A DNA stretch of 64,000 bases, taken from the NCBI RefSeq assembly GCF_006345805.1, contig NC_043000.1, positions 30,070,001 to 30,134,000 of the forward strand. The letters run 5' to 3'. Source of the stretch: Octopus sinensis. Lineage: Eukaryota. A program made the position numbers and the translations under genes. Below the pieces are notes generated by a model. That model did no database searches, was not told the DNA's origin, and worked only from the letters and a program-made list of their open reading frames with translations. Positions 3,510-60,690 of this stretch are shown here, one piece after another. Numbering within the stretch: position 1 is the stretch's first letter; the number at the start of each line of letters is the position of its first letter.

Positions 3510-3680
3510 ATTTAAGAGATGAGGAATTATGTACATTATTTAAATTATTTACATTTGATATTTGTCCTTATTTTGTTTATTGTTAACACAACGTTTCGGC
3601 TGATAAAACTCTCAAGCCTTCATCAGGTGTCTTGGGGAAATTTCGAACCTGGGTTCTCATTCCTAAGGTATTTTTTTATG

Positions 3681-3746: not shown

Positions 3747-4605
3747 CCATTGCACAGCTTCTAATACTGGAGATGTACTACAGTGTCAGCCTTTCACTAC
3801 CAGTGAACTAAGGTAACACCTCTTATTTTTCGAGCATCTTCCAGAGTATTCGAGCGGTTCCACGCAGTGCTGTTTTCTTCAAATGCTCCACCCTTATTGC
3901 AGGCCCTATTTGTTCCACGTACTTTTCAAGATTTTTACTCACTGTTTCCAGGGCTCCGACAATTATTGGTGCTACTGCTACCTTTTTCATCGACCACAAC
4001 TGCTTAACCTCCCACGCTAACCTGTCATATCTCTCAACTTTATTTTCTTCCTTATCGCATACCTTGTTGTCAGCTGGGCACGCTACATCTATGATCCACC
4101 ATAGTTTGTTTCCTTTCTCAATTAAGACTATATCCGGTTTCCTATTCTCTATCTCATGTTCGCACTGAATCATAAAATTCCATAGGACCTCTGCATTTCT
4201 ATGTTCGGCAATGCTTTCAGGTTTGTGGCCGTACCAAATTTTTGCTCTATCAAGTCCATACTTGTTGCAGAGCCTCGCTGTATTGACGTGGTATCTCTTA
4301 TATTCCTTCTGGGCTAGTGGCGTACATTGGCTGGTAATATGCAATACGGCTTCACAGTTTTGTCCACAGATTCTGCGCTTATTACTTTCTGCTGTGTTGT
4401 CTATTCTGTATTTTATGTAGCTTGTTGTTAGTGCTTGCTCTTGGGCAGTATAGATTAGAGTCTCCGTTTGCGCTTTTAAATTACTTATAGTCATCCACAG
4501 CCATCTTTTTTCTCTGTTTGTCTTATCTTCAACATCTCTATGAAATTGATCATGCATTCTTTTCTTCACCCACCTATTTTCAGTTTCATTCGTTTTCTTA
4601 GTTTT
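3747..4605 (-). pseudogene. R4/Dong-clade non-LTR retrotransposon 3' part (zinc knuckle + restriction-like endonuclease) with 3' UTR
   Basis: ORF 3823-4569 has AQEQAL, decayed CCHC (RICG..LHITSQC), RKPDIVLI..IIDVACP, K..RY and PIIVGAL motifs; 3' end abuts (TAA)n. Confidence 0.85.
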
Positions 4606-4609
4606 ATAG

Positions 4610-5150
4610 GTATAGGTAGAGAGGTAAAATCAAATGTATGGACGGGCTAACGATGCCGTGGGGGAAGGTTATGAAGCAGATAGAAGAGACGGGCTATAAG
4701 TACTTGGGGATTGTGGAAATGGATAAATTGATGGAGGAAGAAATGACAGAAAAATTTAAGATGGAGTACTTGTGCAGTCTGAGACTGATCCACAATTCGA
4801 AATTAAATGAACAGAATAAGATCGAAGCTATCAACACCTGGGTGGTTTCACTCCTTAGATATGGAGCAGGGGTAATCTCATGGACAGTAGACGAACTAAA
4901 CAGCTTAGACAAAAAGACAAGGAAGTTGCCAACTACATATGGATCACTCCACCCAAAAAGTGCTACAGACATACTGTATTTACCAAGAAAAAGAGGAGGA
5001 AGAGGACTTATTGTATATGAACACAGCATTAGAGCAGAAGAAAACAGCATAGCATGTTATGTAAAAAAAAGCCACAGAACCGCTATTATTAGAGGTAGGA
5101 AGGTCAGCTTTGTGTAGGATGAAAGATAGCAAAGATAAAGCACTATACAA
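4610..5150 (+). pseudogene. R4/Dong RT C-terminal (thumb) fragment, inverted relative to the endonuclease part
   Basis: ORF 4638-5117 has YKYLGI, NKIEAINTW, LRYGAG and LYLPRKRGGRGL. Confidence 0.85.
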
Positions 5151-5837: not shown

Positions 5838-5920
<83 letters not shown>

Positions 5921-5921
5921 C

Positions 5922-6080
5922 AACATCGAAAATTACCTTAGGTATGAGAACCCAGGTTCGAAATTTCCCCAAGACACCCGATAAATGCTGGAGGGTATAT
6001 CAGCCGAAATGTTGGGTTAACAAAAAAAAAAAAAAAAAATTGATGAGGACAAATATCCGGCAAATGTAAATGATGTTTAT
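5922..6080 (+). mobile_element. Penelope pLTR copy with decayed hammerhead (CCGATAA...GAAATGTT)
   Basis: Inverted homolog of 3510-3683. Confidence 0.75.
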
Positions 6081-10877: not shown

Positions 10878-10881
<4 letters not shown>

Positions 10882-17111: not shown

Positions 17112-17258
<147 letters not shown>

Positions 17259-18660
17259 GGACTCTTTCTCCTAGATACCTTCGGTAAGACATTCCCTAAC
17301 GTACATTTCACCATCTACAAAGATGATGCCCTCGCCTTAACAGCTAATACAAATGGACCAGCACAAGATCGTTTTAGGAAGGATATTATCCAGTTAATGA
17401 AACACTTCGGACTTAGTATAACTATAGACACTAACCTGACGGTTGTCAATTTCTTAGACGTTTCCTTAGATCTTAATAATAATATTATAAGCCTTATAGG
17501 AAGCCCAATGATAGACTAAGTTATATTAATGTAGGTTCATGCCATCCCCCTATAGTATTCAAAAATTTAGTTAAAAATATTAGTAAGAGGATTTCTAGCC
17601 TCTCATCTAATGAGGACATCTTCAATAGCGTTGCCCCAGTTTATAATAAAGCTTTAAAAGATAGTGGTTTTAGCGAAAAAAAAAATATACACCTATCACC
17701 AGCCCACAATAAGGAAAAGGAATAATAGAAATAGGAAGGTCATCTGGTTTACGCCCCCTATTCACCCGAGGTGGCCTTCAATATAGGTAAATATTTCCTA
17801 GCACTGATAGATAGACTTTTCCAGTTAACCATGCTTATAGGAAACTCTTCAATAGACACAATTTAAAATTAGTTTTAGTTCAACTACCAATTTTAAAAAC
17901 ATAATCAATCATAACATACAAAAAACACAAGAAGAAAACAGCTGTTCATGCAGGAATAAAGAATTGTGCCCGCTAAATGGAGCTTGCATGTCCAAGACCA
18001 TCATATATGAAGCTACCGTAAACTCTATAACCACTAAAGACACCGTTTCGACGAAGAAATACGTGGGCCTGACAGAGGGTAATTTCAAGGCCAGGTTCAA
18101 TAACCACACTTTGAGCTTTAGGCACAGGAACAAAAGAAAAGCGACACAATTATCCAATCATATTTGGTCTTTAAGAGATAAAGGTGTCGATTATAACATA
18201 CAATGGATTATAACATACACTAACGGCAGCGGAAGGTGCGGTTTATGCGACATGGAGAGATGGCTTATCTGGAAAAGCAGCTTAGACCCTACCACATGTC
18301 TAAATACAAGGACAGAGCTTTTCGGATCATGCCCACATGTGACTAAATTTCTGTTACGTTTTTGGTCCCCTAAAGAAAACGGATAGAACATGCTTTCTGT
18401 GTTATGCCCCAAAAAGTTTTATATATTTTTATATATTTTATATATTTTTATGTATTTTATATAATTTTTATGACGAAAAATGCGAGCGAGTATAAGTACG
18501 CAGGCAAAGCAGAGTTATAACAGAGTAATTTCCCTTCATTTTTAACGGTATTTTTTCATAACGTTTTCAAATAGCCAGATACCCGAAGAGATGGTGTTGT
18601 GGATTTCCACTTCGGCATCTGAAACTCAGAGTTTTATCTTGACTACCGAGTAATGTAACA
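17259..18660 (+). mobile_element. 5'-truncated Penelope-like element (Naiad-type): RT C-terminus + GIY-YIG endonuclease + 3' hammerhead motif
   Basis: Reads IYKDDAL, VNFLDVSLDL, KPND..YINV.S.HPP (frameshifted), then CSC..CPLNGAC..IIYEA..YVGLTEGNFKARFNNH; decayed HHR CCGAAGA..GAAA at 18577-18639; (TA)n on both sides. Confidence 0.85.
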
Positions 18661-18677
18661 TATTGTATATATATATA

Positions 18678-22773: not shown

Positions 22774-22968
22774 GTGACGCGTGTGTATCGTTGGCGATTT
22801 TTTCCTCCGTCTTCCCTTCCTTGGACCTTTCCTTTTCTATGTTTCTGACGAAGAGCTCCGCTCGAAACGTTAAACCTCCTTTCTTTCCTTTCCTGAGGTC
22901 CACTAACACTATACTTGTTCCATGTCCTCATGTTGTGTTGTTTTCTCTTTGTGTTTTCATGTTTGAAT

Positions 22969-28384: not shown

Positions 28385-29972
28385 ATTATATTATATTAGA
28401 GATAAAACCACCATTAGGCAAATCAAACAGTGAAAAACATAAGCAATACATAATATTAATTAAAAATATAAAAGTTAAAAATTAAAAAATTATTTAAATA
28501 ATTAAACTTATAAATTTTAAATATATATATACAAATATATATATATAATATATATATATATATTATATATATATATAATATATAATATATATATATGTAT
28601 GTATATTTTTTTTATTTATATATTATTTTATTTATTAATTAATTAATTTTTTTTTTTTTTATTTTTAATATATAAATATCAAAAGTATAAAGTTTAATAA
28701 AAGATACAGAGTAAAACACTACGATCGTTTCATGGCTGTACCAATTCGAATAACAATAATTTTAATTCAATTAATAACTCGAATTATGGTTACAGTCAAT
28801 CTTCAGGTTAATTGAAATATTTTTAAAATAATCAGAAATATTTAAACAATATTTTAAAGATATAAATAATATAATAATTTTACTTATAATAAACTCTATT
28901 AACAAACTAGAAACTTAAAACTTAACAATTATGATTATATCAAAATCGATTTTATGTTAAATATTAATTTTAATTTATAAGGTAAGAAACCCACCAATAA
29001 TCTAATATCGTTAATAGTCTATATTTAATTACATAAAGATTTTTTTTTCAATGACTATTATATATAAATTATTAATGAAAATATATAAATCTATATAAAT
29101 ATTATAATTAAGATCTAAAATAATCTCTATAAATAAATATATATGCACATATAATAAAGACCTAATAAATTAACTTTTCATATTTAAAGATGAAATAGCT
29201 AATTTCAAAAATACAAACAAACAAACTTAAACGAACTTTCGGAAATCTAATTTAAAATACTTATAGAAATAATCAATTCGTAGTTATATAGTATCGAATA
29301 AATACTATAAATACTATAAATATATTTATCAATGGGAATAACTAGCCAATATCAATTTAAAAAGACAATAACTAAGTTATGCTATTAAGTTAGACATGGC
29401 CTGTACCAATCTTTGGTCGAAACATATCTAAGTTTAACAAATTTTAATTATAAGAAATTTAAAACTACAATTAATACTATTAATACATGTATATACAAAA
29501 ACCTAACTTTAGACAACTCTTATAATTGCTATCAAACAACAAATCTATTGCTAAGTAATATCTTACGAATAAACTTAAATTTAATATCTAATAATATAGA
29601 AAATTACGATAATTAAATCATTACATAAACAACGATATTTACATAAGAAAAATATTATTACACCAAACACTTATAAAATATTAAAATTTACAATTTAAAG
29701 ATCTTAAATATAAATAAATACTTATCTTAGCGAGGTTTTGTAAATATTTCTGATTATTTTAAAATATTTCAATTAACCTGAAGATTGACAGTAACCATAA
29801 CTCGAATTATTAATTGAATTTAAATTATTGTTATTCGAATTGGTACAGCCATGAAACGATCGTAGTGTTTTACTCTGTATCTTTTATTAAATTTTACTAC
29901 TTTTGATATTTATATATTAAAAAAAAAATTAATTAATAAATAAAATAATATATAAATATATTATATATATAT

Positions 29973-36174: not shown

Positions 36175-36830
36175 AGGAGACAATAAAACCAAGACCGTGT
36201 GGAATTTTCTGGACATTTATAAAGTGAAAGTAAGTCTTACAACTGTTTCTGGGATGTTAGGGATATCTCTTTATCAGAGAGGTTAAATAGAGGGAAATAT
36301 TAGAGTTCAGTATAAGTAGTTATTTTCTAAAAGGATGGATATAGGGAGTATAAAGGGAAATAAGAAAATAAAAATGAAAGTAAAAATATATGTAGGATAG
36401 TATAGTTGCAGTTGCATTATCTAAGGAAAGTGCTGTGTAGAATGGGTAGAAATGCTTCTTGTTCATGGTATGTAGAATCCGATAGGAGTTCATATTTTGT
36501 TATTACAAGTGGATAGTATTTAGACATAAATTCCATGTGCTGTTCATTGAAAGGGATCCTGTGGTGTGAATGAAATTTTGAGAATGTATTGGTGGGGGTG
36601 AGTAGATAAAGAGAAGAGGATAGATATGTATGTTAGGAGGAGAATGGTATTAGTCAAAAGGAATAGGGGAGGAAAGAAGAAAGAAAGAAAAAGGAGGATA
36701 AATGAGCAAAGGAGTGATAGATGGTAATGAAGATATAGTGAGGGGGATGGGAGAAGAGAACTATCAGGATAAAAGGAACCGGGGAGGGATAGAAGGAAGA
36801 GATAAGAATGTAAGGAAGGAATACACACTG
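36175..36830 (-). mobile_element. Homolog of 11940-12810 with hammerhead motif (36235-36280)
   Basis: Minus strand tct-CTGATAA-agagatatccctaacatccca-GAAA-cagttg-TA-aga. Confidence 0.65.
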
Positions 36831-36840
36831 TAACAACTCT

Positions 36841-37510
36841 GAATATACGAGCGCCCAACGTATACACAGCTCCAATATCGAACCATATACTTTAGACCAT
36901 AACGGAAACCCAACCAATCCTACTAACACTAAGCAGAATGCTACTACCCTAACTTTCACCACAATTACAGATAGGATAAATAACCACGATAGAAATAGCA
37001 AAGATATTTGTAATAATAATGTTAATAACATAGAGCAATCTACCTCCATCTCTGACCTCTCCTTAGACAGTATTACTTCCGCCGTTCCTGAAAATAATCC
37101 CCACAATGCACTACCATGTAATTGCCGCCCCGGTACCATTTGCCCTCTACAAACCCGTTGTAGATGGTCTCACGTAAATTACAAATGCACCGTTTTCAAC
37201 ACGCTGCACAATTCTACAACCATAGTTATTGGGTCAACTATAAATTTTAAACAGCGATACGCTACGCATCTCGGTTCTTTTAGATATGAGAAGCACAGTA
37301 ATTCCACAGCACTCGCCAGTCACATACACCATCTCAGAAATAGGGAAACTCCATCTAACTTGTCATAGTGCATAATAGATTCAGGACTTCTATAGCAGGA
37401 TTAATGCTTAGCCTATAAGTTATGCCTAAAAGAAGCATTTCACGTACTAAAACACAAATCTTCAATACTACTAAAGTATAATGAGGCCCTGGGTACGTGC
37501 AAACACCTGT
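36841..37510 (+). pseudogene. Naiad-type PLE GIY-YIG endonuclease remnant (absent from the ORF track)
   Basis: Manual translation: PCNCRPGTICPLQTRC..VNYKCTV..VIGSTINFKQRYATHLGSFRYEKHSNSTALASHI...KLCLKEAF...ALGTCKH; three in-frame stops in the 3' half. Confidence 0.8.
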
Positions 37511-37930
37511 TTTCATAGCTTCAAATTTTACCACAAATCTAAATGCAGCTTAAACCAGCACACAGTACATATACCGACCCCCCCCTTAGGTAACACCCAA
37601 CAACCTTATTTGATTTTCCAATGTCTTATTTCTTTATTTTTTCAATTCTAATTTTAATCTTTTAATTGTTTAATAATACGTATTGAAACATGTATGTGTA
37701 TATATATATCTATATGTGTGTGCCCATTGGGTGCCCTGTTATTTTAATATATATTTATATTCGATTTTTATTTGACTGATTGGAGTGCTTATGCATTATA
37801 CCTTTCAAAATATCTCTCCTTTCGCTTCGATGTTGCCCAAGCACTTCCAGTTGCAGTACTATTTTTAGTTTTGCTCTTAGGTTTAACGAAATTGCCTTTC
37901 GGTTTAACGAAGTTATAAAATTATCCTCTC

Positions 37931-47109: not shown

Positions 47110-47260
47110 TGTGTGTGTGTGTCCTTATATGTTATATGTTTATATAAATACATATATAAATTTAAAATGAGGGTGAGAAATTACATATTAATTTAATTAA
47201 CATCAATTTAACAGCAGAGGTCTACCAAATTAAAATCTGAAGGTTCAGTAAATTGAATTA

Positions 47261-47704
47261 TATGCATATGAGAGGGATGACCACTATGTGAACAACCCTT
47301 ATGCTAGAAGTAGATCCGCTATGGTCTTACCACTAGAAATGTTCTCAAGAAAAATTTAGCAAACACCAAAATTTATGCGAGCAAGACAAATGAAAAATAA
47401 TCACAAGTGTAACAGGTAGAACTAGATACATGTCCGACCTCGTGCGGACGTCCTCGTGTATAGTTCTGCAAATTATATTTGTATTGATGGTAACACTGAA
47501 GATCTACGGACAAATTGCGTAAGTAAAATTACGTAATCTGTTAATAGTGAAACATGTATGTAATTAATCTATATTTTTGTTACTTTTCCTTTGTCTTGCT
47601 CGCTTACGTTTGGGTGTTTGCTAAATCTTTCTTGAGAATATTTCTTAGTGGTAAGACCATGGCGGATCTACTTCTAGCATAGTGGCCATCCCTCTCATAT
47701 GTAT
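47261..47704 (+). mobile_element. Foldback element: 130-145-bp inverted arms around a hammerhead (47491-47563)
   Basis: 47261-47405 vs 47577-47704; taaca-CTGAAGA-t-CTA..TAG-t-GAAA-CATG-TA-tgtaa. Confidence 0.8.
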
Positions 47705-54307: not shown

Positions 54308-54341
<34 letters not shown>

Positions 54342-54345
<4 letters not shown>

Positions 54346-54776
54346 GAGGGTACTACTATTCATAGATACCGCACGCTAGGAGGGACCCTTGCGGTCAAAA
54401 CTACTAAAATAAACAAATTGTACCGAATGCAAAACTTGAAAGCAAGTCATTTAAAAAAAGAATTTAGTTACATATCACCTGTGATTTCGCAATTAATGCA
54501 GAATATGCATTCTATGCTCATCAGTGCAACAAACTCAAGACATATAAGAAAAAGCATAACATTACAAACCCGACAGCCAACCGTAGAATTCGTCGTAGCA
54601 TGTACGAATGTTTATCTCTACATATCTATGAAAATGGCGGGCTTATTCGCAATGCATTTCGGGATAAATGACTAGCTTTGAAGTTTTGCATTCGGTACAC
54701 TTTGTTTATTTTAGTAGTTTTGACCGCAAGGGTCCCTCCTAGTGTGCGGTATCTATGAATAGTAGTACGCTCTATA
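54342..54776 (-). mobile_element. Foldback element: about 112-bp inverted arms around a canonical hammerhead
   Basis: 54342-54453 vs 54665-54776; TA-rich flanks. Confidence 0.85.
54467..54530 (-). ncRNA. Type I hammerhead ribozyme, intact-looking
   Basis: GTTGCA-CTGATGA-GCA tag AATGCA tattc TGCATT aat TGC-GAAA-TCAC ag GTGA-TA-TGTAAC; all core positions and three stems present. Confidence 0.9.
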
Positions 54777-55166
54777 TAATATAATTAAATATTTTCAAAA
54801 TGGAAAAATTTACGGATTTTTTCTCTTACGAGGTTTTTCACGCTAACTACTGATAATTTCTTATAAATATTTTATCCTCAATTTTAAATATATATATAAT
54901 ATATATATTGTATAAAAGGGCTTAGTAAAATAAATTACTTTGCCACATACTGAACTCTTTTAGTAAAATAAATTACTTTGCCAGTAATTACTTTACTATA
55001 TATATATTACTACATATAGACATGAATGCATGCGCTCTTACTTACATTCATACATACATACATACATACATACATACATACATACATACATACATACATA
55101 CATACATACATACATGAATACATATGTATAGCAGTCTATCTGTCTCTGAATCTATCTATCTATATA

Positions 55167-58656: not shown

Positions 58657-60690
58657 TATTATTTACGTTCGACGTATATTTGTCCTCATCTTGTTTTTTA
58701 ACACAACATTTCGGCTAATATACACTCCAGCCTTCTACAGGTGCCTTGAGGAAATTTCGAACCTGGATTCTCATTTCTAAGGTATTTTTCGATGTTATAA
58801 TTATTGCTCAGGTCACTGCCTGGAATCGAGCTCGGAATGTTGTGGTAAGTAGCCTGTGCTCTTAACCACTACGCCATATGTTCGTGAGTGTTATGTTATG
58901 GAGTGGATTTTAGGGCTTATAAATATAATGTTTTCCAATCCTTCCTTAATACGGGTTCCTATATGCTATTCATATCTGAACTCGGTCTGTTTAGGAGGTT
59001 GTTGTGTCCTAGCATATGCGCTGCTTCTGTTAGTTTTCGTATTTTCCAGTGGTGTTCTCTGTCTATTATTTTAACTTCATCCCACAGGGGGAAGTGGTCT
59101 CCATTTTTCCATACATGATCAGCTATACCCGATGTCACAGCGTTGCGATGTTCGTCTACCCTTATTTTGAGGGGGCGGTATGTTTCGCCTTTGTATAACC
59201 TACCACAGCTGCATGGGATGGAGTACACGCAGTCTTTGGTCATATCCTCTTCTATTGGTGGTTTTACTCTTGAATACTGTCCTGATATCCTATGGGCCGC
59301 ATATCTTTTGTATCTTTTCGGAGAGGCCTTTCACATAGTGTAGACAGACTGTGGACAGTTTTTTGACCTCAACCTCTCTCTTCTTCATAATTAGAGTGGA
59401 TAGTATACTTTGGGGGGGTAGTTGTTGCTTAACAGATCGTTATTGAGCTTGATCATTTCTTCGTGGTGTGTATCACGATTGCTACTTATATTCTTTACTC
59501 GATGTTTTAGGCACTGAGCAATCCCTCTCTTTACACAGTATAGATGGTGGGAATTGAAGCTGAGGTATCGTCCAGTGAAGGTCGGCTTGCAGTATATGGA
59601 TGTCCTGAATCCATACTTGGTCCGTATTATTAATACGTCCAGGAATGCCAACTGATTGGCTTTTTCCTTTTTTCCATTGTGAACTGCATAGATGGCTTTA
59701 TTGAGTTCACATGATCTAACAGCACTTGGACATCTTCCTGGTGGAGCCAGAGTATAAAGGTGACATCAACATATCGCAGCCCCATTATGGAACTGTTTAC
59801 ATATTTGGGACACTTCTGCTGTCACACACACACACACACACATATCCTAGATCATATTTCAACGTTGCTCACACAGTTGTGTGTGTGTGTGAGACAGCAG
59901 CCCCACCCCGGGTATGTGAGCAGTACTGCAATATGGTGTGCAATGCCTCTGTGTTTGTATGACATCAAATTTGTTAATTCTACCGTAATCCCTTAGGAGA
60001 GGCTGGTATGCATAAAACCATCCTGTCTGGACTTTGTGCCCCAGAGGGCAACTTTCTAGGTGCAATACCAAAGGGGCTCTTTACCCTTCACCTTTATTAA
60101 AGCTGGAGAGTGTGTTATTTAGTTTGTTGTTTGTAAAGGACTGCACAAAGTAAGGGAAGCAGTTGTAGTAACCAAAATCACAAGATGCTATTCACTGTTG
60201 GTTCTAGTGGTGTTGATCCTAAAGCCAAATTCTCAAAGTATTCCATGTATATATTGGCTATTATCGGTGATAATGGCGAACTCATAGCTAAACCTTCTCC
60301 CTGTCGATATATATCAATATCCATACTGAAGTAGGTAGTTTCTACACAGAAGGTCAACATTTCCATCAAGTTTCTTATCGGAATACTAGTGCGTTCTTTT
60401 TGATGGGTGTATGTCACTAGTTTTTCTTGAATCACCGAAAGGGCTTCAGAAGTTGGGACTTCCATGAACAGACTTATCACATCTAGACTCAGCATCTGGT
60501 TGGATTCAATGGGTATATCCTTGATCATCAATTTTGTGATATGGGTGGAATCCTTCACTACAATGTTGACTTTCCTGCTAATAGACTGATTACATCCAGA
60601 AGGAAGCGGCTCAGTGGATGACATGCTGAACCTCTACAGCTCACTATAGGTCTTAATGGAATATCCGTCAAATGTAAATAATGTAAATAT
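58657..60690 (-). mobile_element. Penelope/Poseidon-type retroelement, 5'-truncated: RT + GIY-YIG + pLTR, interrupted by an insertion at about 59760-60190
   Basis: IPLRPIVS, SLDVISLFMEVP, GLAMSSPLSPIIANIYME, FLDVLI, KPTFTGRYLSFNSHH, CVYSIPCSCGRLYKGET.RPLKIRVDEH; pLTR with decayed HHR at 58700-58745. Confidence 0.9.
58808..58878 (-). promoter_or_regulatory. tRNA-like Pol III unit (A and B boxes) between GIY-YIG and pLTR
   Basis: Minus strand TGGCGTAGTGGTTAAGAGC...GAGCTCGATTCCAGG. Confidence 0.6.

Follow-up and report, generated by a model that had tools for sequence, protein, structure and literature searches.

One locus in the 64,000-nucleotide window (the whole stretch of Octopus sinensis DNA that was analysed, C4:30,070,001-30,134,000 of a 2.72-Gb microsatellite-rich assembly) is a single head-to-head insertion of a protein-free tandem unit of ~494 nt that carries a type I hammerhead, i.e., a non-LTR retrozyme. 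Two-armed insertions of this kind nearly always pair two different fixed ends, and the evidence speaks for a Penelope-like element (PLE) whose enzyme primed one RNA at two sites. A sequence-only reading had proposed that this is an ORF-less hammerhead element, inserted in the manner of PLEs and liable to be misannotated as a MITE, and this proposal is supported. Throughout the text the window family is the ~494-nt unit repeat, the sister family is the repeat 69% identical to it, and the clan comprises the related families including the sister arrays.

Anatomy of the locus and its hammerhead

The insertion starts next to a (TA)n microsatellite, the left part of the target (54309..54341), whose last ~7 bases can be assigned to either element or flank. 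The long arm (54342..54662, minus strand), 98% identical to the reference copy L004, comprises unit 174-494; its 3′ end is site A, and it is 5′-truncated at the inner head-to-head junction, that consists of 2 filler bases (54663..54664) and is located differently among copies. The short arm (54665..54889, plus strand) comprises unit 383-494 followed by unit 1-~113, has site B as its 3′ end and stops 19 nt before reaching the ribozyme cut site. An imperfect (TA)n forms the right part of the target (54890..54909). The TA-rich flanks and the inverted arms noticed earlier (54342-54453 and 54665-54776, with 5 mismatches between them) are genuine, yet the element does not end at 54776, since the right arm goes on for a further 113 nt to ~54889, which makes the window element asymmetric, with two unlike ends. 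This overlooked segment (54777..54889, plus strand) is the ~110-nt tail between sites A and B, which is present on the short arm alone. The window copy itself is a partial monomer, and the 142-aa frame that spans the locus has no Pfam match.

The hammerhead lies at 54467-54530 of the minus strand, as had been reported, with the core CUGAUGA..GAAA..UA, a 6-bp stem I that reaches ~54460-54536 past an internal loop, and a predicted cut after AUA (54473/54472). It is the sole strict match in a type I scan of both strands of the window, where dinucleotide shuffles gave strict matches in 0/100 cases; a relaxed scan gave 2 matches against a shuffle mean of 0.06. The Rfam search of the locus yielded no match at the gathering score and, at E ≤ 5, no hammerhead family among the best 150 of 262 entries, which were microsatellite noise. 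Stem III was described as 5 bp long, which would leave a loop of 2 nt; a 4-bp stem with CAGG as its loop, or else pairing between two molecules, is more plausible. Its sequence is palindromic and in folding forms no hairpin on its own, only a homoduplex of −11.2 kcal/mol, which fits the dimeric hammerheads described in PMC4209133 (this and the other works named by accession or DOI are cited from their accessible text).

The core is kept across 23 distinct copies of the window and sister families, in whose alignment 98.2% of the cells in 17 helix pairs are paired and 4 stem I pairs are preserved via double changes; inner stem II was left out of the covariation scoring, as the alignment is offset there by one column between families. 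The stem I covariation amounts to about two events, not 20, so that support at the RNA level is moderate. The active fold (−14.5 kcal/mol) lies 5.7 kcal/mol above the minimum-energy fold (−20.2 kcal/mol), and the 81-nt motif folded alone has z = −1.85; the whole unit folded as a circle reaches z = −4.3 against 40 shuffles. The window-family hammerhead is described here as a predicted self-cutting RNA. Among predicted Xenopus retrozymes, only 1/9 cleaved in vitro (preprint 10.64898/2026.07.22.740005).

Fixed ends, variable junctions and tandem arrays

A genome search with the window element gave at least 131 matches from the best 40 of 1,786 candidates, and at the matched loci the ~494-nt unit stands in head-to-tail partial tandems; for example, two hammerheads of the window family are 494 nt apart at C2:114584594/114585088. 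A looser clan-wide hammerhead pattern has 4,311 exact matches in the genome, many of them spaced 470-490 nt apart, versus 0 for the reversed control, and the set of arrays was drawn from the first 100 of these 4,311 listed matches. The longest arm holds 14.5 units, and sister subfamilies have up to 14 cores consecutively. The retrozyme unit has a GC content of 32.6%, its longest ATG frame in a dimer is 112 aa, and an open reading frame for RT and GIY-YIG is absent from the window-family unit and locus and from the arrays checked. Upstream of the ribozyme stands the preceding unit and not an ORF; since each unit leads into the next, the window family is a replicating non-autonomous tandem family. 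Within one retrozyme arm (L225:~970-2670) there is a 473-aa frame with a CCHC zinc knuckle, which we take to resemble a LINE ORF1. Contigs of four runs that were guessed to be RNA cover 22-28 of 30 bins, while 0/24 runs are on record as RNA; such contigs are assembled sequence and are counted neither for nor against transcription or circles.

Read in the sense of the ribozyme, the outer arm ends are 3′ ends at one of two fixed sites ~110 nt apart, site A ~135 nt and site B ~245 nt downstream of the predicted cut, each with a CC(C)TC-like motif and then AT-rich bases joined to (TA)n. After removal of L020 (flanks shared with L019), L025 (at the position of L018), duplicates within L031-L108 and the sister-family loci, the window family was represented by 63 independent loci, 30 of them head-to-head and 33 single-arm (arm ≥35 nt). 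The two-armed loci comprise 26 A+B, 3 A+other and 1 B+other, with 0 A+A, 0 B+B and 0 tail-to-tail, while 20 of the single-arm loci end at A and 13 at B. Under independent choice by each arm, 26/26 mixed pairs would have P about 5e-9, although some loci with common short arms ending near unit 58-68 may not be independent. In a held-out set, which was picked by a 24-mer outside the ribozyme and took 20 of 23 not-yet-analysed places, 13/14 loci were A+B and the 14th has a deletion directly before B. The sister family gave 7/7 A+B, one of which ends ~10 nt before A and one of which has a rearranged middle, and the sister arrays 12/15, the rest being two irregular arrays and one incomplete in the sequence examined. 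Pooled over the clan, 58/66 two-armed insertions have one A and one B end, and these 58 have the PLE-type anatomy (an inverted 5′-truncated copy, head to head, with a tail on one end); there are 0 A+A and 0 B+B. The tail of ~110 nt in the window family is longer than the 30-40 bp expected for a PLE-type insertion, and within (TA)n a target-site duplication is unreadable. The consensus fold of the tail region has a conserved helix around site A, with double changes in 3/27 pairs, which is a lead, not evidence.

The idea that the ribozyme sets the end used in priming does not hold, since the positions of sites A and B exclude priming at the ribozyme cut. At their other ends, 34/52 arms extend upstream through the cut site and 0/52 stop within 16 nt of it, so the linear self-cleaved monomer is not the usual template; two further arms, outside those 52, have their 5′ end at unit 361, near the cut. 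It had been suggested that inner junctions be compared among genome copies. This check showed that positions vary from copy to copy, being dispersed over the unit with small clusters near 173-175, 381-384 and 399-400, and that arm lengths in the window family range from 39 to 814 nt. The joining would often occur across 1-5 common bases or a few filler bases. The 5′ ends cluster at unit 58-68, 173-175, 381-384 and 399-400; the 381-384 cluster lies directly past the 3′ strand of extended stem I, as expected with reverse transcription stalling at helices, and the 173-175 cluster may partly come from the choice of query. The sequence-only reading had taken fixed junctions as the mark of a replicating family and variable ones as that of truncated PLE ends, a dichotomy that fails here, for the junctions vary and yet the family is a replicating tandem one.

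Units of young arrays (49 in all) differ by 0.14% inside one arm, by 0.09% from those of the opposite arm and by 3.5% from those of other loci, and a locus-specific haplotype is common to both arms; these sequences suggest that one template was copied into the two arms of a young array. For the older window family, 17/17 loci have an arm-to-arm distance smaller than the between-locus median, and only 6/17 have one smaller than every between-locus value, the window copy not among them. The two window arms differ at 5/106 positions and 7/35 arms from other loci are equally close, so that the window copy itself gives no proof of one template. In L218, two of three units have four differences in common, and this heterogeneity means that a single monomer circle is no explanation there. 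Single variants recur at spaced units in the otherwise uniform arrays of L227 and L228 (units 0 and 8; 2 and 6). The variants of all three loci could reflect multimeric templates, conversion or assembly effects, and assembly polishing or gene conversion could be an alternative cause of unit homogeneity.

Penelope-like elements and other repeats

The window contains a 5′-truncated PLE at ~17250-18665 (plus strand), whose family is young, with 96-100% amino-acid identity in 150/150 scored matches (the best 150 of 19,279 first-look candidates). A 717-aa open frame at L194:1964-4114 (minus strand), with 835 database relatives, has a C-terminal GIY-YIG-like region (weak Pfam match, E = 0.005) and a Cys-rich linker, by which its family appears Neptune/Nematis-like, placed by the description in PMC8557442 and not by phylogeny. 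The pLTR of this family carries a hammerhead-like motif with a CCGAAGA core variant. All 19/19 of its head-to-head pairs, which were picked from the match list of the young PLE family, consist of one short and one tailed end, with a tail of ~67 nt, at (TA)n; in L209 one arm has a point change, and the full tail is present in the sequence. A second young PLE family with 721-727-aa frames (L270-L274, e.g., G000:C2:88212800-88217400) has a minimal hammerhead-like motif upstream of the ORF and is another candidate driver.

A search for an ORF-bearing partner with similar terminal sequence, by BLAST of clan units, found none among 60 + 20 PLE loci, which came from three protein searches that each score only the best 150 candidates; the matches were nested clan copies in L181 and noise (best E 0.037). 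Neither of the two young PLE families has significant sequence similarity to the clan. With no matching partner among these 80 loci, the link to PLEs rests on the insertion signature. At L181 (G000:C3:172727986-172731450) a (TA)n-rich site has received two clan foldbacks as well as a PLE copy, one upon the other, hence the target is common to clan elements and PLE. Older PLE fragments lie in the window at 36814-37930 and 58959-60633. The sequence that follows the first of them ends where a TTATCCTCTC motif meets (TA)n, in the manner of sites A and B; an end of the TTATCCTCTC type was not found in relatives of the 36814-37930 ORF.

The same rule had been claimed for four further places in the window, each time with partial success. 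At 47261 a relaxed-scan hammerhead and the same two-end design are present, only the start lies near 47163. This unrelated ~535-nt tandem family (~47163-47700) has a hammerhead-like core at 47496, in which the base of stem II is mismatched, and its two ends, ~105 nt from each other, bear similar CCCTC motifs. Its copy in the window is B+A, and 4/6 simple two-armed loci of the family are A+B, while L131 has both ends near A. At 10878 the inverted arms and the tail on one side are there, but no canonical hammerhead was found: the foldback at 10874-~11345 belongs to a ~355-nt tandem family and has its tail only on the right; this family was left out of the end counts, its key motif having matched just 2/16 loci. 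Near 28385 the inverted repeats that were found are low-complexity ones only, and a hammerhead-like core with a 68-nt stem II, a palindromic stem III and an imperfect stem I is located at ~28710-28812 (minus strand). Of the 3510/5922 pair one copy bears a core, but the other is degenerate and 2.1 kb away; these two pLTR-like repeat copies (~3560-3660, minus strand; ~5920-6030, plus strand), with one intact minimal core, stand by (AAT)n tracts and flank broken reading frames at 3823-5117 (minus strand). The frames resemble those of an R4/Dong-type non-LTR element, and a 268-aa frame within this region has no Pfam match. Two near-identical short hammerhead-like cores of another family are located at 22845 (plus strand) and 30580 (minus strand).

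Metazoan non-LTR retrozymes have units of 150-450 nt (Cervera and de la Pena 2020, PMC7229834), or 51-972 nt by a later account (preprint 10.64898/2026.07.22.740005). The window family is like them in being low in GC and ORF-less, with tandem units that have one type I hammerhead each, in ranging from partial monomers to long multimers and in co-occurring with PLEs; the clan's unit, at 470-494 nt, lies at the long end of the range. A sequence-related PLE was reported for 24/57 Xenopus retrozyme families (10.64898/2026.07.22.740005), in contrast to none among the 80 PLE loci here. Head-to-head arrays with two fixed ends are a clan feature that is undescribed for retrozymes in the accessible text of PMC7229834 and of the preprint 10.64898/2026.07.22.740005, where the word 'inverted' occurs 0 times and once, respectively.

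Insertions of endonuclease-bearing PLEs comprise a partial tandem, an inverted 5′-truncated copy and a tail on one end (PMC3846280, PMC8557442). The clan shares with them the head-to-head arms, the tail on one arm alone and (TA)n targets as in Naiad and Hydra, but it has no RT-endonuclease ORF, its tail is ~110 nt versus 30-40, and its arm can be a multi-unit array. Cutting and extension of both strands have been shown for the purified PAc protein of a Poseidon element, a predicted dimer, which initiates at two positions inside the RNA that mark the limits of the tail and does so without a need for ribozyme cleavage (PMC11167929). Likewise, in the clan two start sites downstream of the ribozyme bound the tail, the targets are AT-rich and the ends lie apart from the ribozyme cut. 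However, the clan's pairing of one site per end is nearly strict, whereas for PAc no strand difference in the use of start sites was described, and no report of exclusive one-site-per-end pairing was found in the accessible text of PMC11167929.

Origin of the arms and arrays

The unit, its arrays, the fixed 3′ ends at (TA)n, the variable 5′ ends, the A+B pairing and the near-identical units of young loci are the observed basis of a model that we hold to be probable, in which a PLE enzyme cut (TA)n on both strands and primed each end at A or B of one, probably circular, retrozyme RNA. The retrozyme would be transcribed, would cleave itself and would be ligated to a circle, while the PLE enzyme would nick both strands in (TA)n, so that one DNA end may be primed at A and the other at B, both sites being internal to one RNA. 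Reverse transcription would then proceed upstream from either site, going round many times in young arrays before it ends, and the two cDNA ends would be joined, often via short homology or filler. The ribozyme would make the template, and the priming site would not be set by it. In LINE-1 twin priming, two primers on one RNA produce an inversion joined by short homology, the pieces of which are non-overlapping. The clan would resemble it in the two primers on one RNA and in the inversion joined by short homology, but the two clan arms overlap in the stretch that they copy, and each begins at a fixed start site.

For long arrays the circle is the likeliest template, and the uncleaved multimer is its main rival. 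An uncleaved array transcript could be primed by a PLE at the same two sites, with arrays that grow later by unequal crossover or conversion and a ribozyme that is incidental. This is unlikely, though several points favour it: in vitro, PLE ribozyme mutants were without effect on insertion and the substrate was predominantly unprocessed RNA (PMC11167929), a homogeneous source array would likewise yield homogeneous daughters, and both the heterogeneity of L218 and the spaced variants of L227 and L228 agree with it. Yet 5′ truncation would shorten such arrays in each generation, and arms of 10-14.5 units with clean A/B ends are present among the sister arrays; moreover, families that differ by 30% have retained the core and the stems, and a strong fold is predicted for the circular unit.

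Fold-back or self-priming of one nascent strand, which the earlier reading had considered as the origin of the inverted arm and of which a form with an antisense template was proposed in PMC3846280, would account for the near-perfect palindromic junctions in L017, L044 and L058 and for the 15/26 A+B loci in which one arm is contained in the other. It is nevertheless improbable, as neither arm contains the other in the window copy and in 11/26 A+B loci (hand count), and it leaves unexplained why the second arm should finish at the other one of the fixed sites. In the window copy the tail is missing from the A arm and unit 174-382 from the B arm, hence neither was copied from the other; simple fold-back is therefore ruled out here, save with an additional template switch onto RNA, and likewise in those 11 loci.

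It is slightly less probable still that the repeats are 5′-truncated pLTR ends of an autonomous PLE with no independent life. The anatomy equals that of truncated PLE insertions (PMC8557442) and the partner search covered only 80 PLE loci, but what precedes the ribozyme is the previous unit instead of an ORF, and neither the 112-aa frame of the dimer nor the 142-aa frame of the locus points to a coding element; as a source of the arrays, truncated ends of a coding PLE are refuted by the unit-into-unit structure. That the element is a DNA-transposon MITE which duplicated a TA target site and bears its hammerhead by chance, as the inverted arms and TA-rich flanks might suggest, is hardly credible and is refuted by the asymmetric ends, the variable arm lengths and junctions in place of fixed symmetric terminal inverted repeats and a uniform length, the single arm in 33/63 loci and the unit that builds tandem arrays.

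Retrozymes, their proposed dependence on PLEs and the tail on one inverted pLTR are already in print (PMC3846280, PMC8557442). In the literature searched, which included few subscription papers, there was no report of exclusive A+B pairing as a count, of the PLE insertion signature on retrozyme arrays or of haplotypes common to both arms, and in the accessible text of an octopus repeat annotation (PMC13282606) the word 'ribozyme' occurs 0 times. Foldbacks of this kind risk being filed as MITEs if the tail is overlooked. Published support for the mobilisation of animal retrozymes by PLEs consists of co-occurrence and pLTR similarity; here an ORF-less ribozyme repeat bears the PLE signature almost without exception, beside young intact PLEs that obey the same end rule. 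A more specific form of two-site priming, that we put forward tentatively and at somewhat less than even chances, is that a PLE dimer grips one circular RNA at two sites, one per end of the (TA)n break, and performs two rolling-circle reverse transcriptions, after which the ends are joined. If this is true, a single step would account for the tail of PLEs, for the inverted head-to-head arrangement and for the way in which long retrozyme arrays arise, and thousands of insertions would be a direct genomic record of PLE machinery moving animal retrozymes from circles.
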